Part shown: piece by piece, positions 50,891 to 63,277 of the stretch
Position numbering within the stretch: position 1 is the first letter of the stretch
Layout: every line of letters starts with the position of its first letter
DNA from: a phage
NCBI GenBank assembly: GCA_033648345.1
Contig: GCA_033648345.1_4121.1
DNA: 64,000 bases
Strand: one strand, 5' to 3'
Made by a program: the position numbers and the translations under genes
The notes under the pieces: generated by a model
The model's database searches: none
What the model was told of the DNA's origin: nothing
Seen by the model: only the letters and a program-made list of their open reading frames with translations

Positions 50891-50960
50891 AATTCCCTCC
50901 TTTATTCATTATACTATATTTAACCAAAAAGAAAAGCCAGTACTCTGTACTGGCACTATA
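50891..50960 (-). promoter_or_regulatory. array cassette: terminator hairpin, T-run, TATAAT, AGGAGG
   Basis: minus strand reads GCCAGTACAGAGTACTGGCTTTTCTTTTTGGTTAAATATAGTATAATGAATAAAGGAGGGAATTATG. Confidence 0.6.
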
Positions 50961-52310
50961 TTACAACAAATGTATTTCTGTGAGTGTTTGATATGTTACA
51001 CCGTTGTACACACCTCTCCAATATACCTTACCTTCAGTACTAACCACTAATAATCCATATGTTGTAAACCCAAGAGTACCACCAACATACATAGCATCTT
51101 TGATTTTAATACCAATGTCTTCATATGTAAATGAAGCGACTGCTCCCGCTTGCCATGAAGGACTAGCATAGTAATCACTATAAACACCATGTGCTTTATA
51201 TATTGATGTTGTTCCGGGTTCAAAAATTACAGTTCCACAGTAGTTCATTCGTATTTTGGTACTGGATGAAGTTGGTACATTTATACCTACATCATCTTTA
51301 ATCCCTGTAGTTAGGACGTTAAAACCACCCGCTACACGGTTGACGTCATTCGCACCGATTAGAAACATACCAACGTTGTAGCCCATATAATACACACTAC
51401 TTGTACCATTCCAGAAAGAAAAACCACCACCATTACCACAGCGATATAGTTGTGAATTTGAGCAGTACATCATGCCTTCGTTTGATGCATCAAAATCATC
51501 TGCTGTTCCGATTACAGCCACGGTAGTCCACGTTTTAATCACTTGGTTTGTACTAGCTGGTTTTTGTATACCATATCGTATATTATATCCCTTACCTACG
51601 ATTGTACCATCTTCTAATTTGGCATAAAGTACAGGTCTATTACCAACAAAATACACATTATTATGTGACATGTCTATTGTGCATCTTAATGAAACTGCTT
51701 TTTGTGTCAATTGATTATCTTTAGTAAAAGAAGTAAAGTAGTAATCTGATGTGGAGTTGTTTATTAAACCTTGAATCGACAAACCCATATACCAGATTTC
51801 ACCATTAGTGTTCAATGCTGCCAAAATACAACTATATTTTGAAGTGTATGCTGGGGTTAATGATGTTGCTGGACCTTTATCATATCCACCACAGAATACC
51901 ATTTCCACAACTTCACCTACGTTAGAAAAATAAGAAGATACATTTATAAAACCATTTGTTATAAAAGGTGCTGTAGTTATACTTGAATGTGTGAATATTC
52001 CATTTGCATATACACCACAAAAATGATATGAACCATCATTATCTTTAACTATTATTCCATTTGATAGTAGCCAAAAATTGTTTACATTTTTTCGTACTAA
52101 TTCAATTCCTGTACCATTGGTTGGTGTTATACCAAAAGAAACATATTTTGTTTGACCAATACCATATAAATTTCCATTTGATGCTAATATTGCACCAAAC
52201 CAATTACCACCACCATTCCTATCATGACCCATACCAATGGAGTCGAATTTCTTTACAGTTGGAACCTCTACTGTATTCCCATAATCAAATAATCTAACAA
52301 AAGGTAACAT
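50961..52310 (-). CDS. RCC1-like family protein, array member 3 (449 aa, more diverged)
   Basis: MLPFVRLFDYGN; Gly/Ser/Thr/Asn-rich. Confidence 0.65.
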   Translation of the reverse strand: MLPFVRLFDYGNTVEVPTVKKFDSIGMGHDRNGGGNWFGAILASNGNLYGIGQTKYVSFGITPTNGTGIELVRKNVNNFWLLSNGIIVKDNDGSYHFCGVYANGIFTHSSITTAPFITNGFINVSSYFSNVGEVVEMVFCGGYDKGPATSLTPAYTSKYSCILAALNTNGEIWYMGLSIQGLINNSTSDYYFTSFTKDNQLTQKAVSLRCTIDMSHNNVYFVGNRPVLYAKLEDGTIVGKGYNIRYGIQKPASTNQVIKTWTTVAVIGTADDFDASNEGMMYCSNSQLYRCGNGGGFSFWNGTSSVYYMGYNVGMFLIGANDVNRVAGGFNVLTTGIKDDVGINVPTSSSTKIRMNYCGTVIFEPGTTSIYKAHGVYSDYYASPSWQAGAVASFTYEDIGIKIKDAMYVGGTLGFTTYGLLVVSTEGKVYWRGVYNGVTYQTLTEIHLL

Positions 52311-52320
52311 ATATTCCTCC

Positions 52321-53500
52321 TTAAACTTGTGGTAGTGGGTATTCTGTTAACGTCCATGTACCAACAACTGTTCCAATTGGTGACCTACCCGTGTAATATA
52401 ATTTATTATCCGCATACACAAATAATGCACCATCATTGGCAGCAACCAATGAGGTATCTGGATCAAATACCAAAGAGCTTGGAAATTGTGTTTGAACGAA
52501 AATCGAAGCATTGTTAGTTGAGTTGATGCCGAGTTGCCCCTGGTTATTATACCCAGTACCAAAAATACGTTTCCCATTTCTATACAATATACCCCTTGAA
52601 CTTTGTGAATGTAGTGGTATAAATTCAAAATCGGAAACATCAGTTAATTGTAAATAAGTACTTTGTGGAGTTAATGATGTCTTATTAGTATTGGTTGTAA
52701 TTCCATTACCTAATTGTCCGCACTACTTGTGCTCCTACGCCATATAGCGGATAAGTACCATCTGAATAAAGAACTATACCCAACATATTAGTATGTGAAA
52801 AAATATCAATGGGATATTTCCCAGGACCAAAATCATACTTTGTCCAACTCGTTAATGTAGCCGAAGCAGCACCAGTTAACAACGTACCAGAAGTAGTTTT
52901 ACCACATCGCCACGCAGTATTATCATTCTTAATTATCCAAGTTGGACTATTAAAAAATGAACTAACCTTTTTGACATTAATATTAACCTGAGTTAATGAT
53001 GTAAGCATTTCTGAAGTAGTACCCAACTCATATGTAGAATTGTCACCTATAGCATAAAGAACCCCACTATTTGTTAGTACAAACATATTACGAGCATTAG
53101 GATATATCTCTTTAATATTATCTATATCAATACTAGAAAAATAAGAAGTACATTCAACAAATGTAGTACTTTGTACTGAATTTGATGTACCTGTCCAAAT
53201 ATCCCAACCTGCATAATAAAATTTATTATCATTTGTCTGTACTAAACTAAATGAAGCATTCCTGGTGCACCAGAAATTTTTCACATTTTTCATTAAGAGA
53301 ACCCAGTTGTTCTGTGTGGTAGTATTTCCAAGTCCGAAAATACCAGCGTTGTTTCCTCCTATACCCCACAAATCACCATTCTTATACAGAAGCATTAATG
53401 TATTGTTGATAAACGCCGATGGTGCTTGCATCTTAATTACATTAGATTCATAAACAGGTTTAACATTCCCGTACTTAACCATTCTTGCAAAAGGTAACAT
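52321..53500 (-). pseudogene. RCC1-like array member 4, interrupted by +1 frameshift (pseudogene, error, or programmed frameshift)
   Basis: N-terminal piece 52706-53500 ends ...LYGVGAQVVRTIR*; +1 frame continues GQLGNGITTN... into 52321-52587; junction at GTG-CGG-A. Confidence 0.5.
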
Positions 53501-61998: not shown

Positions 61999-62061
61999 AA
62001 TTCCCTCCTTTATTCATTATACTATATTTAATCAAAAAGAAAAGCCAGTACTCATTTAATT
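61999..62061 (-). promoter_or_regulatory. array cassette (half hairpin)
   Basis: tataat and aggagg conserved. Confidence 0.5.
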
Positions 62062-63207
62062 TTAACGAGGTATAACTATTTTTTTGAATAATCCAGTATT
62101 TCCTGCATTTTCTTCTTCATATGGAATTGTACCCATACCAGCAGTTCTGCCACCATTCCCTGAACCATACAGTTCTCCATTCTTAATCATGAATGTTATC
62201 ATATAACCATGTGTCATTTTATCATATGGAACTGGTTCAGTTATATTATTACATGCTCGCCATGTACTAATAACACTAGAGTTCGTTATACCATCACCTG
62301 ATGCGTTTCCTCGACCAGCGAAATACCATATCCCACCTGCTCTAACGTGTGCTTCATAATTAGAACCACCTATGTAATCAATCGCAGTACTAGGAATACT
62401 AGAAGCTGGTATCTTTGTGATTGTTCTAAGACTGTTAATAGTGCCATTAGTGCCATCACCCAACTGTCCATATATTTGTGAACCGAATACATATAGCCCA
62501 TCACTCTTTAATACGTAATTAGCACTATATGCATTTTCTGAATTTATCTGTAATACTCCAGTAGTAACAGTAGTCAATGTGGTAGTTGTACCAGTCGAAC
62601 CAATACTAGATTTTTTCCCACTGTACTTTAATGTTCCATCATTGTATAATACAAATGAAGCATTATCAGCGGTTACACCAATATCTTTAACATCAACTTC
62701 TGGTGTCAATGTCAGTACTGATACTCTTTGGTCAACAGCCCCAGTAAAAACTTCACCGTTGTTATTGTAACCCATCTTATATAATTTATTATCTATTGTT
62801 AATAATAATGTAACGCCGTTTCCTATAACTATTTTACTATATGTGTCATTCACATCATCAAAAATACCAAGTATTTCTGTCCATACACGATAAGTAGTAT
62901 TAACACCACGATAGATTTGAGCACCAGTACTCCACCATGTGCCATCATTTTTACGTACTAATATTCCGTGTGTATCACCAGTAGTCCAAAATTCCTTTAC
63001 ATCAGTTAAACATAAAACCCACTCTTCAACTATAGTAGGAGAACTACTACCAGTACCTAATTGATAGTAAAAATTATGCCCTCTGCCATATAATCTTCCG
63101 TCTTCTAATAAAATAAACACATTATTCTGTAAAACTTTTACCATCTTTATACCAACTGGCACAGGTGCTTCATTCCCACAATCGAACATTCTAACAAAAG
63201 GTAACAT
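62062..63207 (-). CDS. RCC1-like repeat protein, array member 12
   Basis: start at internal MLPFVRMFDCGN (63207); YGRGHNFYYQLGTGSS / FGSQIYGQLGDGTNGT. Confidence 0.75.
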   Translation of the reverse strand: MLPFVRMFDCGNEAPVPVGIKMVKVLQNNVFILLEDGRLYGRGHNFYYQLGTGSSSPTIVEEWVLCLTDVKEFWTTGDTHGILVRKNDGTWWSTGAQIYRGVNTTYRVWTEILGIFDDVNDTYSKIVIGNGVTLLLTIDNKLYKMGYNNNGEVFTGAVDQRVSVLTLTPEVDVKDIGVTADNASFVLYNDGTLKYSGKKSSIGSTGTTTTLTTVTTGVLQINSENAYSANYVLKSDGLYVFGSQIYGQLGDGTNGTINSLRTITKIPASSIPSTAIDYIGGSNYEAHVRAGGIWYFAGRGNASGDGITNSSVISTWRACNNITEPVPYDKMTHGYMITFMIKNGELYGSGNGGRTAGMGTIPYEEENAGNTGLFKKIVIPR

Positions 63208-63277
63208 ATTCCCTCCTTTATTCATTATACTATATTTAATCAAAAATAAAAGCCAGTACAGAGTACTGGCATAGTAT
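63208..63277 (-). promoter_or_regulatory. array cassette
   Basis: gccagtacagagtactggc hairpin plus tataat and aggagg. Confidence 0.6.

Follow-up and report, generated by a model that had tools for sequence, protein, structure and literature searches.

A putative regulatory linker and gene exchange at its copies in the RCC1-like gene array of an Asteriusvirus jumbo phage

Mobile regulatory cassettes are known from T4-type phages as PeSL, or promoter-early stem-loop, elements (Arbiol et al. 2010, PMC2839356; Comeau et al. 2014, PMC4122927). These intergenic composites consist of a stem-loop terminator, an early sigma-70 promoter, a Shine-Dalgarno (SD) sequence and a start codon, and are scattered amongst unrelated ORFans in several hyperplastic regions. 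Their promoter and terminator activities, as well as mini-circles, have been demonstrated. The internal-protein (IP) loci of T-even phages (Repoila et al. 1994), as summarised in PMC2839356 and PMC12373910, hold one to three highly polymorphic genes for small virion-carried proteins, with a conserved promoter/stem-loop before each gene, shuffling that stays within the locus, and a conserved N-terminal peptide that acts as the signal for packaging of the products, which are injected into the host. Other mobile single-gene units include integron cassettes, which have a repeated site, palindromic in part, at their ends and are exchanged by an integrase through attC-type site-specific crossover, and morons, each of which carries its own promoter and terminator.

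The locus described here lies in a 64,000-nucleotide stretch of DNA (the window) of a jumbo E. coli phage, an Asteriusvirus of the PBECO4/121Q group. At least 13 RCC1-like paralogs form one minus-strand array that runs from 47838 to past 64000, with near-identical linkers of about 70 bases (terminator hairpin, promoter-like box, ribosome site) that are followed by the same first 12 codons. As in PeSL, the linkers are composites in the range of 70-100 nt with a stem-loop terminator, promoter, SD and start codon (the first two predicted here) that recur as direct repeats; they delimit the indels and replacements that distinguish close relatives, with crossovers inside (in the loop, the AT-rich region, or from the -10 to the ATG), and whole genes appear to move with their own expression signals. 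To this extent an earlier note on this DNA was right to see the cassettes as mirroring PeSL. The likeness ends at the hairpin, whose stem (GCCAGTAC, against GGGG..CCCC in PeSL) is unrelated and shares no sequence homology; at the box, TAAATA-N3-TATAAT, which is probably late and has no sigma-70 -35/-10 consensus; at the distribution, since the cassette occurs in a single array of paralogs and nowhere else; and at the 36-39 nt of coding sequence into which the homology extends, unlike in PeSL. The array linker is therefore regarded as an analogue of PeSL and not a member, and as a new variant of the PeSL/T-even internal-protein-locus type of arrangement.

Junctions and genes of the array

The array genes encode 40-kDa RCC1-like propellers with an average protein identity of 27% (G0-G12), and arrays of this kind hold 9-17 genes each. 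The PF00415 profile cut-off was passed by four of the five paralogs tested, the match to PF25390 was significant yet below the gathering score, and G10 matched PHROG 4219 with no Pfam hits; by the profile criterion, these are RCC1-like repeat proteins. A predicted structure of an array protein was all-beta (pTM 0.76), with the N-terminal 16 residues unstructured and of low confidence. The genes, all RCC1-like paralogs, and the elements between them are as follows.

63278 to beyond 64000, minus strand: G0 (partial, type Y)
63208..63277, minus strand: G0/G1 full cassette; hairpin 63252-63270 with T-run (-13 kcal/mol, z -4.6), box TAAATATAGTATAAT 63224-63238, AAGGAGG, ATG at 63207
63172..63207, minus strand: example of the conserved first 12 codons (ATG TTA CCT TTT GTT AGA ATG ...), found in all 12 genes
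62062-63207, minus strand: G1
61999..62061, minus strand: G1/G2 truncated cassette; 5' hairpin arm lost (-3.7 kcal/mol, z -0.06), T-run, box (62016-62030) and RBS intact, terminator not predicted
60805-61998, minus strand: G2
60796..60804, minus strand: G2/G3 RBS-only junction, TAGGAGAAAATC-ATG, without hairpin or box
59614-60795, minus strand: G3
59539..59613, minus strand: G3/G4 variant cassette; longer hairpin ATACCAGTAC-TGAAATAC-GTACTGGTAT (59582-59611; -16.8 kcal/mol, z -5.8), T8, box TAAATACATTATAAT (59560-59574), weaker RBS GGAG
58408-59538, minus strand: G4
58398..58407, minus strand: G4/G5 RBS-only junction
57195-58397, minus strand: G5
57187..57194, minus strand: G5/G6 RBS-only junction, TAGGAGGAATT-ATG
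56077-57186, minus strand: G6
56007..56076, minus strand: G6/G7 full cassette; hairpin 56052-56070, box 56024-56038
54827-56006, minus strand: G7 (frameshifted)
54756..54826, minus strand: G7/G8 full cassette; hairpin AATGCCAGTA-CTTGA-TACTGGCATT (54798-54822; -13.8 kcal/mol), box 54772-54786
53580-54755, minus strand: G8
53501..53579, minus strand: G8/G9 cassette; degenerate hairpin 53546-53564 with two stem mismatches (-6.8 kcal/mol, z -1.2), box TAAATATAGTATAAC (53518-53532) with TATAAC replacing TATAAT
52321-53500, minus strand: G9 (frameshifted)
52311..52320, minus strand: G9/G10 RBS-only junction
50961-52310, minus strand: G10
50891..50960, minus strand: G10/G11 full cassette; hairpin 50936-50954, box 50908-50922
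49754-50890, minus strand: G11
49722..49753, minus strand: terminator-only copy after G11; hairpin 49729-49747 and T-run
48994..49070, minus strand: promoter-only variant upstream of G12; box TAAATAAAGTATAAC at 49010-49024, RBS AAGGAG
47869-48993, minus strand: G12
47838..47864, minus strand: hairpin after G12, AATCCAGTACTAT-AAT-ATAGTACTGGATT, same CCAGTAC core (-15.1 kcal/mol, z -5.6)

The earlier note had placed the module at 50891, 53501, 54756, 56007, 61999 and 63208, with a variant at 59539, each coordinate being the first base past the downstream gene's ATG; all of these positions are correct, with 0 expected by chance. Its anatomy of hairpin, T-run, RBS and ATG also applies overall, except that the 61999 copy has lost the 5' arm, as it has at the same junction in phage BF17, and the 53501 copy has the two stem mismatches. 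The array does not stop at 50891, the lowest coordinate in the note, but continues through G11 and G12, with the terminator-only copy lying between G11 and a convergent plus-strand gene (49071-49721) and the hairpin at 47838..47864 marking the low-coordinate end.

A cassette, which the note saw before most array genes, is present at only 7 of the 12 window junctions, two of them with a broken hairpin, while G2/G3, G4/G5, G5/G6 and G9/G10 have an RBS only. An intact hairpin together with the box is found at just 5 of the 12, which contradicts the view that each gene is a self-contained transcription unit. Because four junctions are RBS-only and two have defective hairpins, several array genes must be co-transcribed, and the two defective hairpins amongst the seven cassettes suggest that termination is dispensable at some junctions. 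Across 11 arrays, 31 of 141 junctions (about a quarter) are RBS-only or overlapping.

Hairpin, promoter-like box and conserved first codons

Read on the minus strand, the module consists of the hairpin (GCCAGTAC-loop-GTACTGGC), a T-run with the overlapping box, a strong RBS and the 12 conserved codons. The window contains seven matches to the hairpin pattern GCCAGTACNNNGTACTGGC with up to two mismatches, where 0.00 would be expected, and six of these are in or adjoin the array; the 28-nt box sequence TTAAATATAGTATAATGAATAAAGGAGG had five exact minus-strand matches (50896, 54760, 56012, 62004 and 63212), again against 0.00 expected. The stem is 8-11 bp long, and intact hairpins fold at -12.4 to -16.8 kcal/mol (z -2.2 to -5.8). 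A terminator scan found 20 terminator-like sites in the array region, compared to 7.0 expected; seven array-region hairpins passed it, every one with a T-run, and the cassette copies at 61999 and 53501 failed. Hairpins of this type are already annotated as ARNOLD terminators in the GenBank record of phage G17.

Additional evidence came from 29 distinct hairpins, including those of Salmonella phage 7t3 and Klebsiella phage fENko-Kae01. Stem pairing was kept in 95% of cells, compared to only 15-48% in slid controls, and both sides had changed at four of the nine stem pairs (16 cells), a covariation score reached by none of 500 shuffles; these compensatory changes support the stem. Having a G+C-containing stem-loop, a T-run and a compensated stem, the hairpin resembles an intrinsic (Rho-independent) terminator. 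The AGTAC/GTACT core is unchanged even in divergent variants and in other genera, and the loops occur as reverse-complement pairs (TCT/AGA, TTGA/TCAA and CTTGA/TCAAG). The distant relatives 7t3 and fENko-Kae01 carry homologous cassettes in homologous arrays, indicating that the module is old.

The box places a perfect -10 hexamer 3 nt after TAAATA. Its core, TAAATA-N3-TATAAY, occurs nine times in the window against 0.17 expected, and is present in every cassette class and in distant genera. No -35 hexamer was found 16-18 nt from the TATAAT, and the sigma-70 scan called none of the cassettes; a sigma-70 early promoter was rejected on these grounds. In Rak2-like phages the late consensus has been reported as ATAAATA (PMC5259590). 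The array cassettes have TTAAATA or GTAAATA, matching it at six of seven positions, with no exact TATAAATA/ATAAATA amongst them; phAPEC6 structural genes carry an exact TATAAATA upstream, but without the downstream TATAAT. Altogether, the box is most likely a -35-less promoter that closely resembles the Rak2-like/T4-type late element and from which transcription would restart late in infection. The scan, the compensated stem and the cross-genera box agree with the earlier suggestion that the modules have the appearance of a terminator with a promoter and RBS behind it, although both activities, the promoter class and its timing are predictions.

The same type of box is found where a promoter would be expected. 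A hairpin-less box precedes the first gene of every array, beside a divergent gene, and a further copy precedes an isolated gene outside the array:

18381-18395, minus strand: box TAAATACGTTATAAT, of the array type
17201-18358 (region 17175..18395), minus strand: isolated gene, ortholog of the virion protein phAPEC6 gp077
17175-17193, minus strand: its own predicted hairpin terminator

Neither the first array gene nor this isolated gene has an upstream co-directional transcript, and both have the box upstream. All neighbours of the isolated gene lie on the opposite strand, so that it must have its own promoter; its box matches ATAAATA at seven of seven positions and is kept in phAPEC6.

The module extends beyond the ATG, since the first 36-39 nt of every gene are also conserved (MLPF[V/A]R..YGN). 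Identity amounts to 84% amongst cassettes and to 80% over the first 39 nt, while that of gene bodies, at 54%, is hardly distinguishable from that of shuffled sequence (53%). In codons 2-12, synonymous sites are close to fixed across 42 gene types: TTA is used in 42 of 42 (48% usage), CCT in 40 of 42 (31%) and GGG in 31 of 41 (11%).

Gene exchange amongst relatives and its possible mechanism

Relatives whose flanks are 98-99% identical differ in array gene order and content, and the array query (window 50000-63999) is covered in them to just 18-52%. Across 12 arrays there are 47 gene types in differing orders. Genes with 98-100% identity stand next to different genes from one phage to another, which shows that exchange has been recent and frequent. 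All 488 ends of blocks with at least 95% identity fell within -100..+75 of a gene start, compared to 13% expected for uniform positions, although such gene-precise ends would also be expected if selection merely purged recombinants with broken genes. Amongst 327 comparisons, 73 junctions were recombinant, a single crossover accounting for 96.7% of informative sites; the G6/G7 cassette, for example, is chimeric, combining two WPEC3 cassettes through one crossover that lies in the T-run, at -41..-35 from the ATG. Misassembly across repeats could account for some of the differences amongst GenBank assemblies, and the clearly error-rich CMSTMSU was left out of the junction-crossover, block-end and adjacency analyses and kept for gene-type clustering.

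Gene shuffling at the modules is well supported, and the breakpoint comparison amongst related genomes that the earlier note had called for places crossovers inside them. The cassette, which the note saw as the homology for shuffling, is neither the only nor the main site. Of 61 mapped crossovers, 20 lay in the cassette, 38 in the RBS, ATG or first 45 nt of coding sequence, three spanned both and none was upstream of the hairpin; positions were scattered from -72 to +46, mostly outside the hairpin, with the first-codon segment as the most frequent interval. RBS-only junctions lost neighbours as often as cassette junctions did (0.40 vs 0.41), which indicates that the cassette itself is not required and that the 5' codons suffice.

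We consider it probable that the junction module is both a composite regulatory linker and a recombination substrate of a virion-associated RCC1-like array. The hairpin and T-run would end the transcript of the upstream gene, the -35-less promoter overlapping the T-run would most likely restart transcription late in infection, and a strong SD would lead into 12 codons that are almost alike in all paralogs. As gene bodies are random-like, non-allelic genes share homology only in the direct repeats, which measure about 110 nt and recur about every 1.2 kb, and crossing over would consequently occur only there. Acting within a single genome or between relatives that co-infect a cell, homologous recombination by T4-like phage machinery would then delete, insert, replace or relocate whole genes, each bringing working expression signals, and the same exchanges would keep the modules nearly identical (concerted evolution). 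The phAPEC6 annotation includes gp46/47-like and EndoVII-like recombination genes.

A less eventful history, which we regard as rather unlikely, is that an ancestral gene was tandemly duplicated along with its promoter and terminator, and that these signals are under ordinary purifying selection, with recombination incidental and boundaries set by selection against broken genes. The cassette is indeed confined to the array, as expected of something carried along with a duplicated unit: whole-genome copies (6-12 in 11 genomes) equal the copies in the RCC1-like array or come within 1-2 of them, with none elsewhere in the 64 kb of the window and none in 58 kb of phAPEC6. The age of the module and the equal shuffling of RBS-only junctions fit as well. 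Purifying selection on function, however, leaves unexplained the near-fixed synonymous sites and the identical stem and spacer beside gene bodies at random level, and the clean single crossovers of the chimeric cassettes and the 98-100% identical genes in different contexts point to recent, frequent exchange.

One or a few long transcripts from the first-gene promoter, with an inactive box and with hairpins acting in RNA stability or processing (3'-end protection or an RNase site), seem improbable to us. Co-transcription is certainly used, given the RBS-only and overlapping junctions, and the two window cassettes without a working hairpin and the missing -35 element point the same way; against this, a T-run always directly follows the hairpin, the signature of an intrinsic terminator, the box core is invariant across genera, and hairpin-less boxes stand ahead of the first array gene and the antisense isolated gene. 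Least plausible is an integron-like system, in which a phage-encoded recombinase or nuclease would target the palindrome GCCAGTAC..GTACTGGC, excising and inserting gene cassettes. The invariant core, the reverse-complement loop pairs, which imply DNA-level events at the palindrome, and HNH endonuclease genes near the array in some relatives would suit it, and the array, like an integron, is made up of separate one-gene units with a recurring, partly palindromic site at their borders. Crossovers nonetheless occur throughout the homology of about 110 nt, in T-run, box, RBS and first codons, and most of them lie downstream of the cassette; hairpin-less junctions recombine equally often; and neither attC-type crossover nor, amongst the annotated records, an integrase-like gene beside the arrays was seen. 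Morons resemble the array in the promoter and terminator predicted for each unit, but only in the array are the flanking regulatory sequences conserved and used as exchange sites.

Virion association and significance

Mass spectrometry of phAPEC6 virions detected gp077 and eight array proteins (PMC7247149, Table 1), and GAP32 gp1 was likewise found virion-associated by MS (PMC5259590). With locus-restricted polymorphic genes, predicted upstream promoter/stem-loops and a conserved N-terminal peptide (MLPF[V/A]R..YGN), the array resembles the T-even IP loci, as it does in shuffling that stays within the locus. It differs from them in having 9-17 genes for 40-kDa propellers in a Rak2-like jumbo phage. 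We tentatively raise the possibility that the array is the jumbo-phage counterpart of the IP loci, exchanging cassettes for virion-borne effector or decoration proteins, with the 12-residue N-terminus as a virion-incorporation or docking signal and the module, from its terminator through a late-type promoter and RBS to the codons for that signal, as a universal adaptor. If so, any propeller gene of the pool (47 types, 12 phages) would be timed and loaded into the particle through the module, and fast swapping would tune host range or counter-defence.

These observations extend linker-mediated modular shuffling, known from PeSL and IP-locus elements, from T4-type to Rak2-like jumbo phages, with all array breakpoints falling in a module of about 110 nt. 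They also yield a small candidate part that combines terminator, promoter and RBS, together with a promoter-like motif not described before, TAAATA-N3-TATAAT, which is associated with virion-protein genes. The fEgEco12 paper noted a difference in "chromosome condensation regulator" genes and left it unexplained; module shuffling explains why, in Asteriusvirus genomes that are otherwise nearly the same, these genes vary the most. The RCC1-like array thus represents a fast-evolving, virion-associated gene pool, with candidate roles such as host range or anti-defence.

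Array organization and junction anatomy

The RCC1-like genes form a minus-strand array, numbered G0 to G12 from high to low coordinate, and many of their junctions carry a linker, here called the cassette, that consists of a terminator hairpin, a T-run, a bipartite box (TAAATA-N3-TATAAT) and a ribosome binding site (RBS). The array and the departures from the full linker are as follows.

47869 to past 64000, minus strand: array of at least 13 paralogous genes (G0-G12), about 1.15 kb each, G0 being cut by the window end
61999-62061: cassette without the 5' hairpin arm, not folding
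53501-53579: cassette with two stem mismatches
G2/G3, G4/G5, G5/G6 and G9/G10 (n = 4): RBS-only junctions, without hairpin and without box
49729-49747: terminator-only copy
49010-49024: promoter-only variant
47838-47864: last hairpin of the array

The seven cassette positions given in an earlier note (50891, 53501, 54756, 56007, 59539, 61999 and 63208) were all correct and mark the bases directly after the ATG of the downstream gene. The repeat it described was borne out by seven matches to the hairpin pattern and five exact matches to the 28-nt box, each vs 0.00 expected. The description needed four amendments, namely that some hairpins are defective, that some junctions are RBS-only, that the array and its signals extend down to 47838, and that the repeat continues into coding sequence, the first 12 codons (MLPF[V/A]R..YGN) being kept in 12/12 genes.

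Intact hairpins had stems of 8-11 bp, loops of 3-8 nt and folding energies of -12.4 to -16.8 kcal/mol, far below those of shuffles, with a T-run directly 3' of every one; they are also annotated, independently, as ARNOLD terminators in the GenBank record of G17. Homologous arrays of the same architecture in Salmonella phage 7t3 and Klebsiella phage fENko-Kae01 have changed outer stem bases (GACAGTAC/GTACTGTC, GGCTAGTAC/GTACTAGCC and GGTCAGTAC/GTACTGACC). When 29 distinct hairpins were aligned, 95% of cells were paired and both sides had changed in 4 of 9 pairs (16 cells); the covariation score was reached by 0/500 shuffles, and slid controls paired in 15-48% of cells. This pairing and covariation argue that the stem is under structural selection, which would fit the predicted terminator. 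Across the window and relatives L001-L011, loops on the same strand form reverse-complement pairs (TCT/AGA, TTGA/TCAA and CTTGA/TCAAG; in the window, AGA at 50936-50954 and TCT at 63252-63270); the palindrome has therefore changed orientation repeatedly, in the way expected of template switching or of small inversions mediated by hairpins.

The array products were recognized as RCC1-like repeat proteins by PF00415 above the cut-off, a significant PF25390 and a PHROG 4219 match, the mean pairwise identity among the paralogs being only 27%. The array region matched 37 phage records, all of them Escherichia/Salmonella jumbo phages of the PBECO4/121Q/G17 group (Asteriusvirus), in a patchy manner (coverage 18-52%, identity 86-98%), and the 25 kb adjoining it are collinear and 98-99% identical in WPEC3, vB_Ec-M-J, WPEC5, Turkey3, fEgEco12, BF17, EC.P1 and Ecwhy_1. 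The array therefore stands out as a hypervariable island, the genome being conserved otherwise.

Two array genes are frameshifted, each with an open downstream frame: G7 (type L in the clustering of gene bodies) at 55827-55903, where the frame changes to +1 at CGTGGA-C-GGAAAC, after 59 aa, and 358 aa follow, and G9 (type X) at 52640-52706, with 264 aa followed by 97 aa. WPEC3, EC.P1, Ecwhy_1 and JNE01 share the G7 lesion base for base, as WPEC3 does the G9 lesion; such splits represent either pseudogenes passed on by descent or programmed shifts. Within the array, a 216-aa gene on the opposite strand (49071-49721, plus strand; PHROG 34359) converges with G11, shares with it the hairpin at 49729-49747, and is kept at the same place in most close relatives. 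Bordering the array, seven back-to-back ORFs (45394-47833, plus strand; 104-123 aa) code for hydrophobic proteins that probably cross the membrane several times; some pairs are weakly similar (20-27% over 83-125 aligned residues), so that the ORFs may represent a second, much older tandem family. In relatives, past the far end of the array and thus outside the window, some 20 tiny genes of about 60-70 aa (180-213 nt each; L003 14807-19209, with equivalents in L004-L011) are transcribed divergently in a row that looks like another tandem family whose copy number varies between phages.

The cassette is array-specific. In 390 kb of scanned sequence all boxes of the cassette type lay inside arrays, as did all matches to the hairpin pattern save one, the hairpin at 17175 behind an isolated gene. 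BLAST with a 65-nt cassette returned only about 40 records in total, with 6-12 places per whole genome, a number that equals the array count or differs from it by one or two, and the exact box was found in IMG/VR in the 121Q genome only. A role as a genome-wide phage terminator/promoter was rejected, as neither the cassette nor, beyond the 17175 hairpin and one recurrence of the 15-nt box core at 18381, its parts turned up elsewhere in the window, in the flanks of 11 relatives or in 58 kb of phAPEC6.

Gene exchange at the junctions

Clustering of gene bodies at 88% identity gave 47 types (single letters) across 12 arrays, with no order common to two phages; it took in CMSTMSU (L002) despite its many homopolymer-type frameshifts, for which that phage was left out of the junction-crossover, block-end and adjacency analyses. 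The order is Y/G/J-A/H-P-B/L/T/X-Q/C/D in the window and E/I/A/H-P-B/U/L/G/F/V/W/X-Q/C/D in WPEC3. From phage to phage, genes of 98-100% identity stand beside different neighbours, type A occurring in seven contexts and type G following Y, L, B or E. Recent tandem duplication was rejected as the driver, since at the 88% threshold no array contains the same type more than once.

Amongst blocks of at least 95% identity and at least 400 nt, 488/488 internal ends (271 unique positions) fell within -100 to +75 of a gene start, where 13% would be expected under uniform placement, and none in gene bodies, a pattern that is partly expected at junctions since homology stops where neighbouring genes differ. 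The informative evidence for shuffling is the lack of intragenic block ends together with the mapped chimeric modules. When both flanks of a junction were present in another phage (327 comparisons), 254 junctions were collinear and 73 recombinant, and three-way alignments of 67 unique triplets revealed clean switches from the left to the right parent, with 96.7% of informative sites fitting one crossover. Twenty crossover intervals lay in the cassette (hairpin, T-run, box), 38 in the RBS, ATG and first 45 nt of coding sequence, and 3 spanned both; none of those mapped lay upstream of the hairpin. The junction at 56007-56076, for example, is chimeric: upstream, with the loop TCA, it is identical to the B/U cassette of WPEC3, and its 3' part is identical to the U/L cassette; the switch lies within the T-run and its outcome is that gene U was deleted or inserted. 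Assembly errors at repeats are possible in public genomes, but typical reads are longer than the module (about 110 nt), and independent isolates show the same junctions. The proposal that the module supplies homology for cassette shuffling was thus upheld, both by the differing array orders among relatives and by crossovers mapping inside modules.

Between different gene types the bodies are 54% identical vs 53% when shuffled, i.e., at random level, and identity amounts to 84% in the cassettes and 80% in the first 39 nt of the genes. Synonymous sites in codons 2-12 of 42 gene types are near-fixed: TTA was used in 42/42 (48% in gene bodies), CCT in 40/42 (31%), AGA in 38/41 (40%), AAG in 19/20 (28%) and GGG in 31/41 (11%). 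Protein-level selection cannot explain these sites, which point to homogenisation at the DNA level (concerted evolution via the same exchanges), to a constraint on the initiation region at the RNA level, or to both. The right neighbour was kept, when the left gene was present elsewhere, at a frequency of 0.41 at cassette junctions vs 0.40 at RBS-only junctions, and the idea that cassette junctions are the fragile ones was rejected on this ground. The cassette therefore adds homology yet is dispensable, the conserved gene start alone being sufficient for exchange.

Promoter-like box and transcription units

The box also occurs at one place far from the array.

18381-18395, minus strand: ninth copy of the box core, 15 nt, 23 nt upstream of the isolated gene
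17201-18358, minus strand: isolated gene of 385 aa among plus-strand genes, not RCC1-like
17175-17193: terminator hairpin of the isolated gene, GCCACTAC-AAT-GTAGTGGC

The cassette box has a perfect TATAAT and no -35. A sigma-70 early promoter of the type found in PeSL (promoter-early stem-loop) elements was rejected, as the sigma-70 consensus scan did not call the box and its promoter-like sites were fewer than in shuffles (75 vs 88). Aligning all junction classes and genera left an invariant core, TAAATA-N3-TATAA(T/C), present nine times in the window vs 0.17 expected, eight of them in the array. The isolated gene is the ortholog of phAPEC6 gp077 (76% identical), and the box motif is kept in phAPEC6. 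A hairpin-free box likewise precedes the first gene of every array, beside a divergent gene; a promoter is needed at both hairpin-free positions.

A T4-like late motif, ATAAATA, has been reported for Rak2-like phages (PMC5259590), and in 49 kb of the phAPEC6 structural region 6/6 exact TATAAATA sites lie upstream of structural genes. This T4-type late word is depleted in the window (1 vs 11.9 expected), the sole copy, at 35397, preceding the ORF at 35437-35820. The cassette half-site (TTAAATA or GTAAATA) agrees with the late motif at 6/7 positions and the copy at the gp077 ortholog at 7/7; unlike the cassette box, canonical late promoters have no downstream TATAAT. The assignment to a promoter class is uncertain, the box being probably a distinct, late, -35-less class that would serve virion-protein genes antisense to early-gene regions. 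A candidate factor for such a class is the sigma-70-family protein encoded at 23133-24101 (plus strand; 322 aa, PHROG 351), in which Pfam detected only regions 2 and 3; the gp55-like late sigma factor that relatives encode, e.g., phAPEC6 gp237c, is a different protein.

Across 11 arrays and 141 junctions, a box was found in 110 (78%), hairpin and box together in 95, and 31 were RBS-only; the claim that every gene is a self-contained transcription unit is therefore too strong. The units predicted from these signals in the window are [G1-G2-G3], [G4-G5-G6], [G7], [G8-G9-G10], [G11] and [G12], with a predicted weak stop after G8 and additional internal boxes preceding G2 and G9. Altogether, the earlier observation was confirmed and its interpretation supported in part only.

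Virion association and relation to known systems

Mass spectrometry of phAPEC6 virions detected gp077 and eight array proteins (PMC7247149, Table 1), and the single RCC1-like protein of GAP32 is likewise structural (PMC5259590). Short array members of about 270-300 aa in fENko-Kae01 (L015 3902-4705) and vB_Ec-M-J (L004 21781-22686) are annotated as detected by LC-MS/MS or as 'virion structural protein', which hints, independently, at the presence of array products in the particle.

The N-terminal peptide of G1-G12 occurs in two forms, MLPFVR[M/L]FDYGN and MLPFARMVK[Y/F]GN, neither of which correlates with junction type in these genes; in the 7t3 and fENko-Kae01 arrays it reads MIPF[A/T]RIL.YGN. 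An AlphaFold model of G1 (pTM 0.76, pLDDT 70), with an input of only 10 paralogs, supports an all-beta fold and is too weak to assign a role to the N-terminus, whose 16 residues it leaves unstructured and at low confidence, as might weakly be compatible with a signal or docking peptide.

In the literature searched, no paper was found on the cassette, its promoter or array shuffling in Asteriusvirus; the fEgEco12 paper notes only a strong difference from Ecwhy_1 in two 'chromosome condensation regulators'. There was no indication of an integron-like site-specific mechanism. The likeness to PeSLs, the mobile cassettes of T4-type phages, holds for the linker type of shuffling, as both have composite terminator/promoter linkers, gene-precise indels and replacements, and crossovers within the linker (PMC2839356, PMC4122927), but three PeSL features fail: the array cassette has no sigma-70 early promoter, its stem is not homologous, and it is confined to arrays, whereas PeSLs are scattered among unrelated ORFans (PMC2839356). 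As summarised in PMC2839356 and PMC12373910, the T-even internal protein (IP) loci, where a conserved promoter/stem-loop lies upstream of each gene and the N-terminal signal is conserved too, are a closer analogue than PeSLs, being likewise a case of locus-restricted shuffling of genes for virion-carried proteins.
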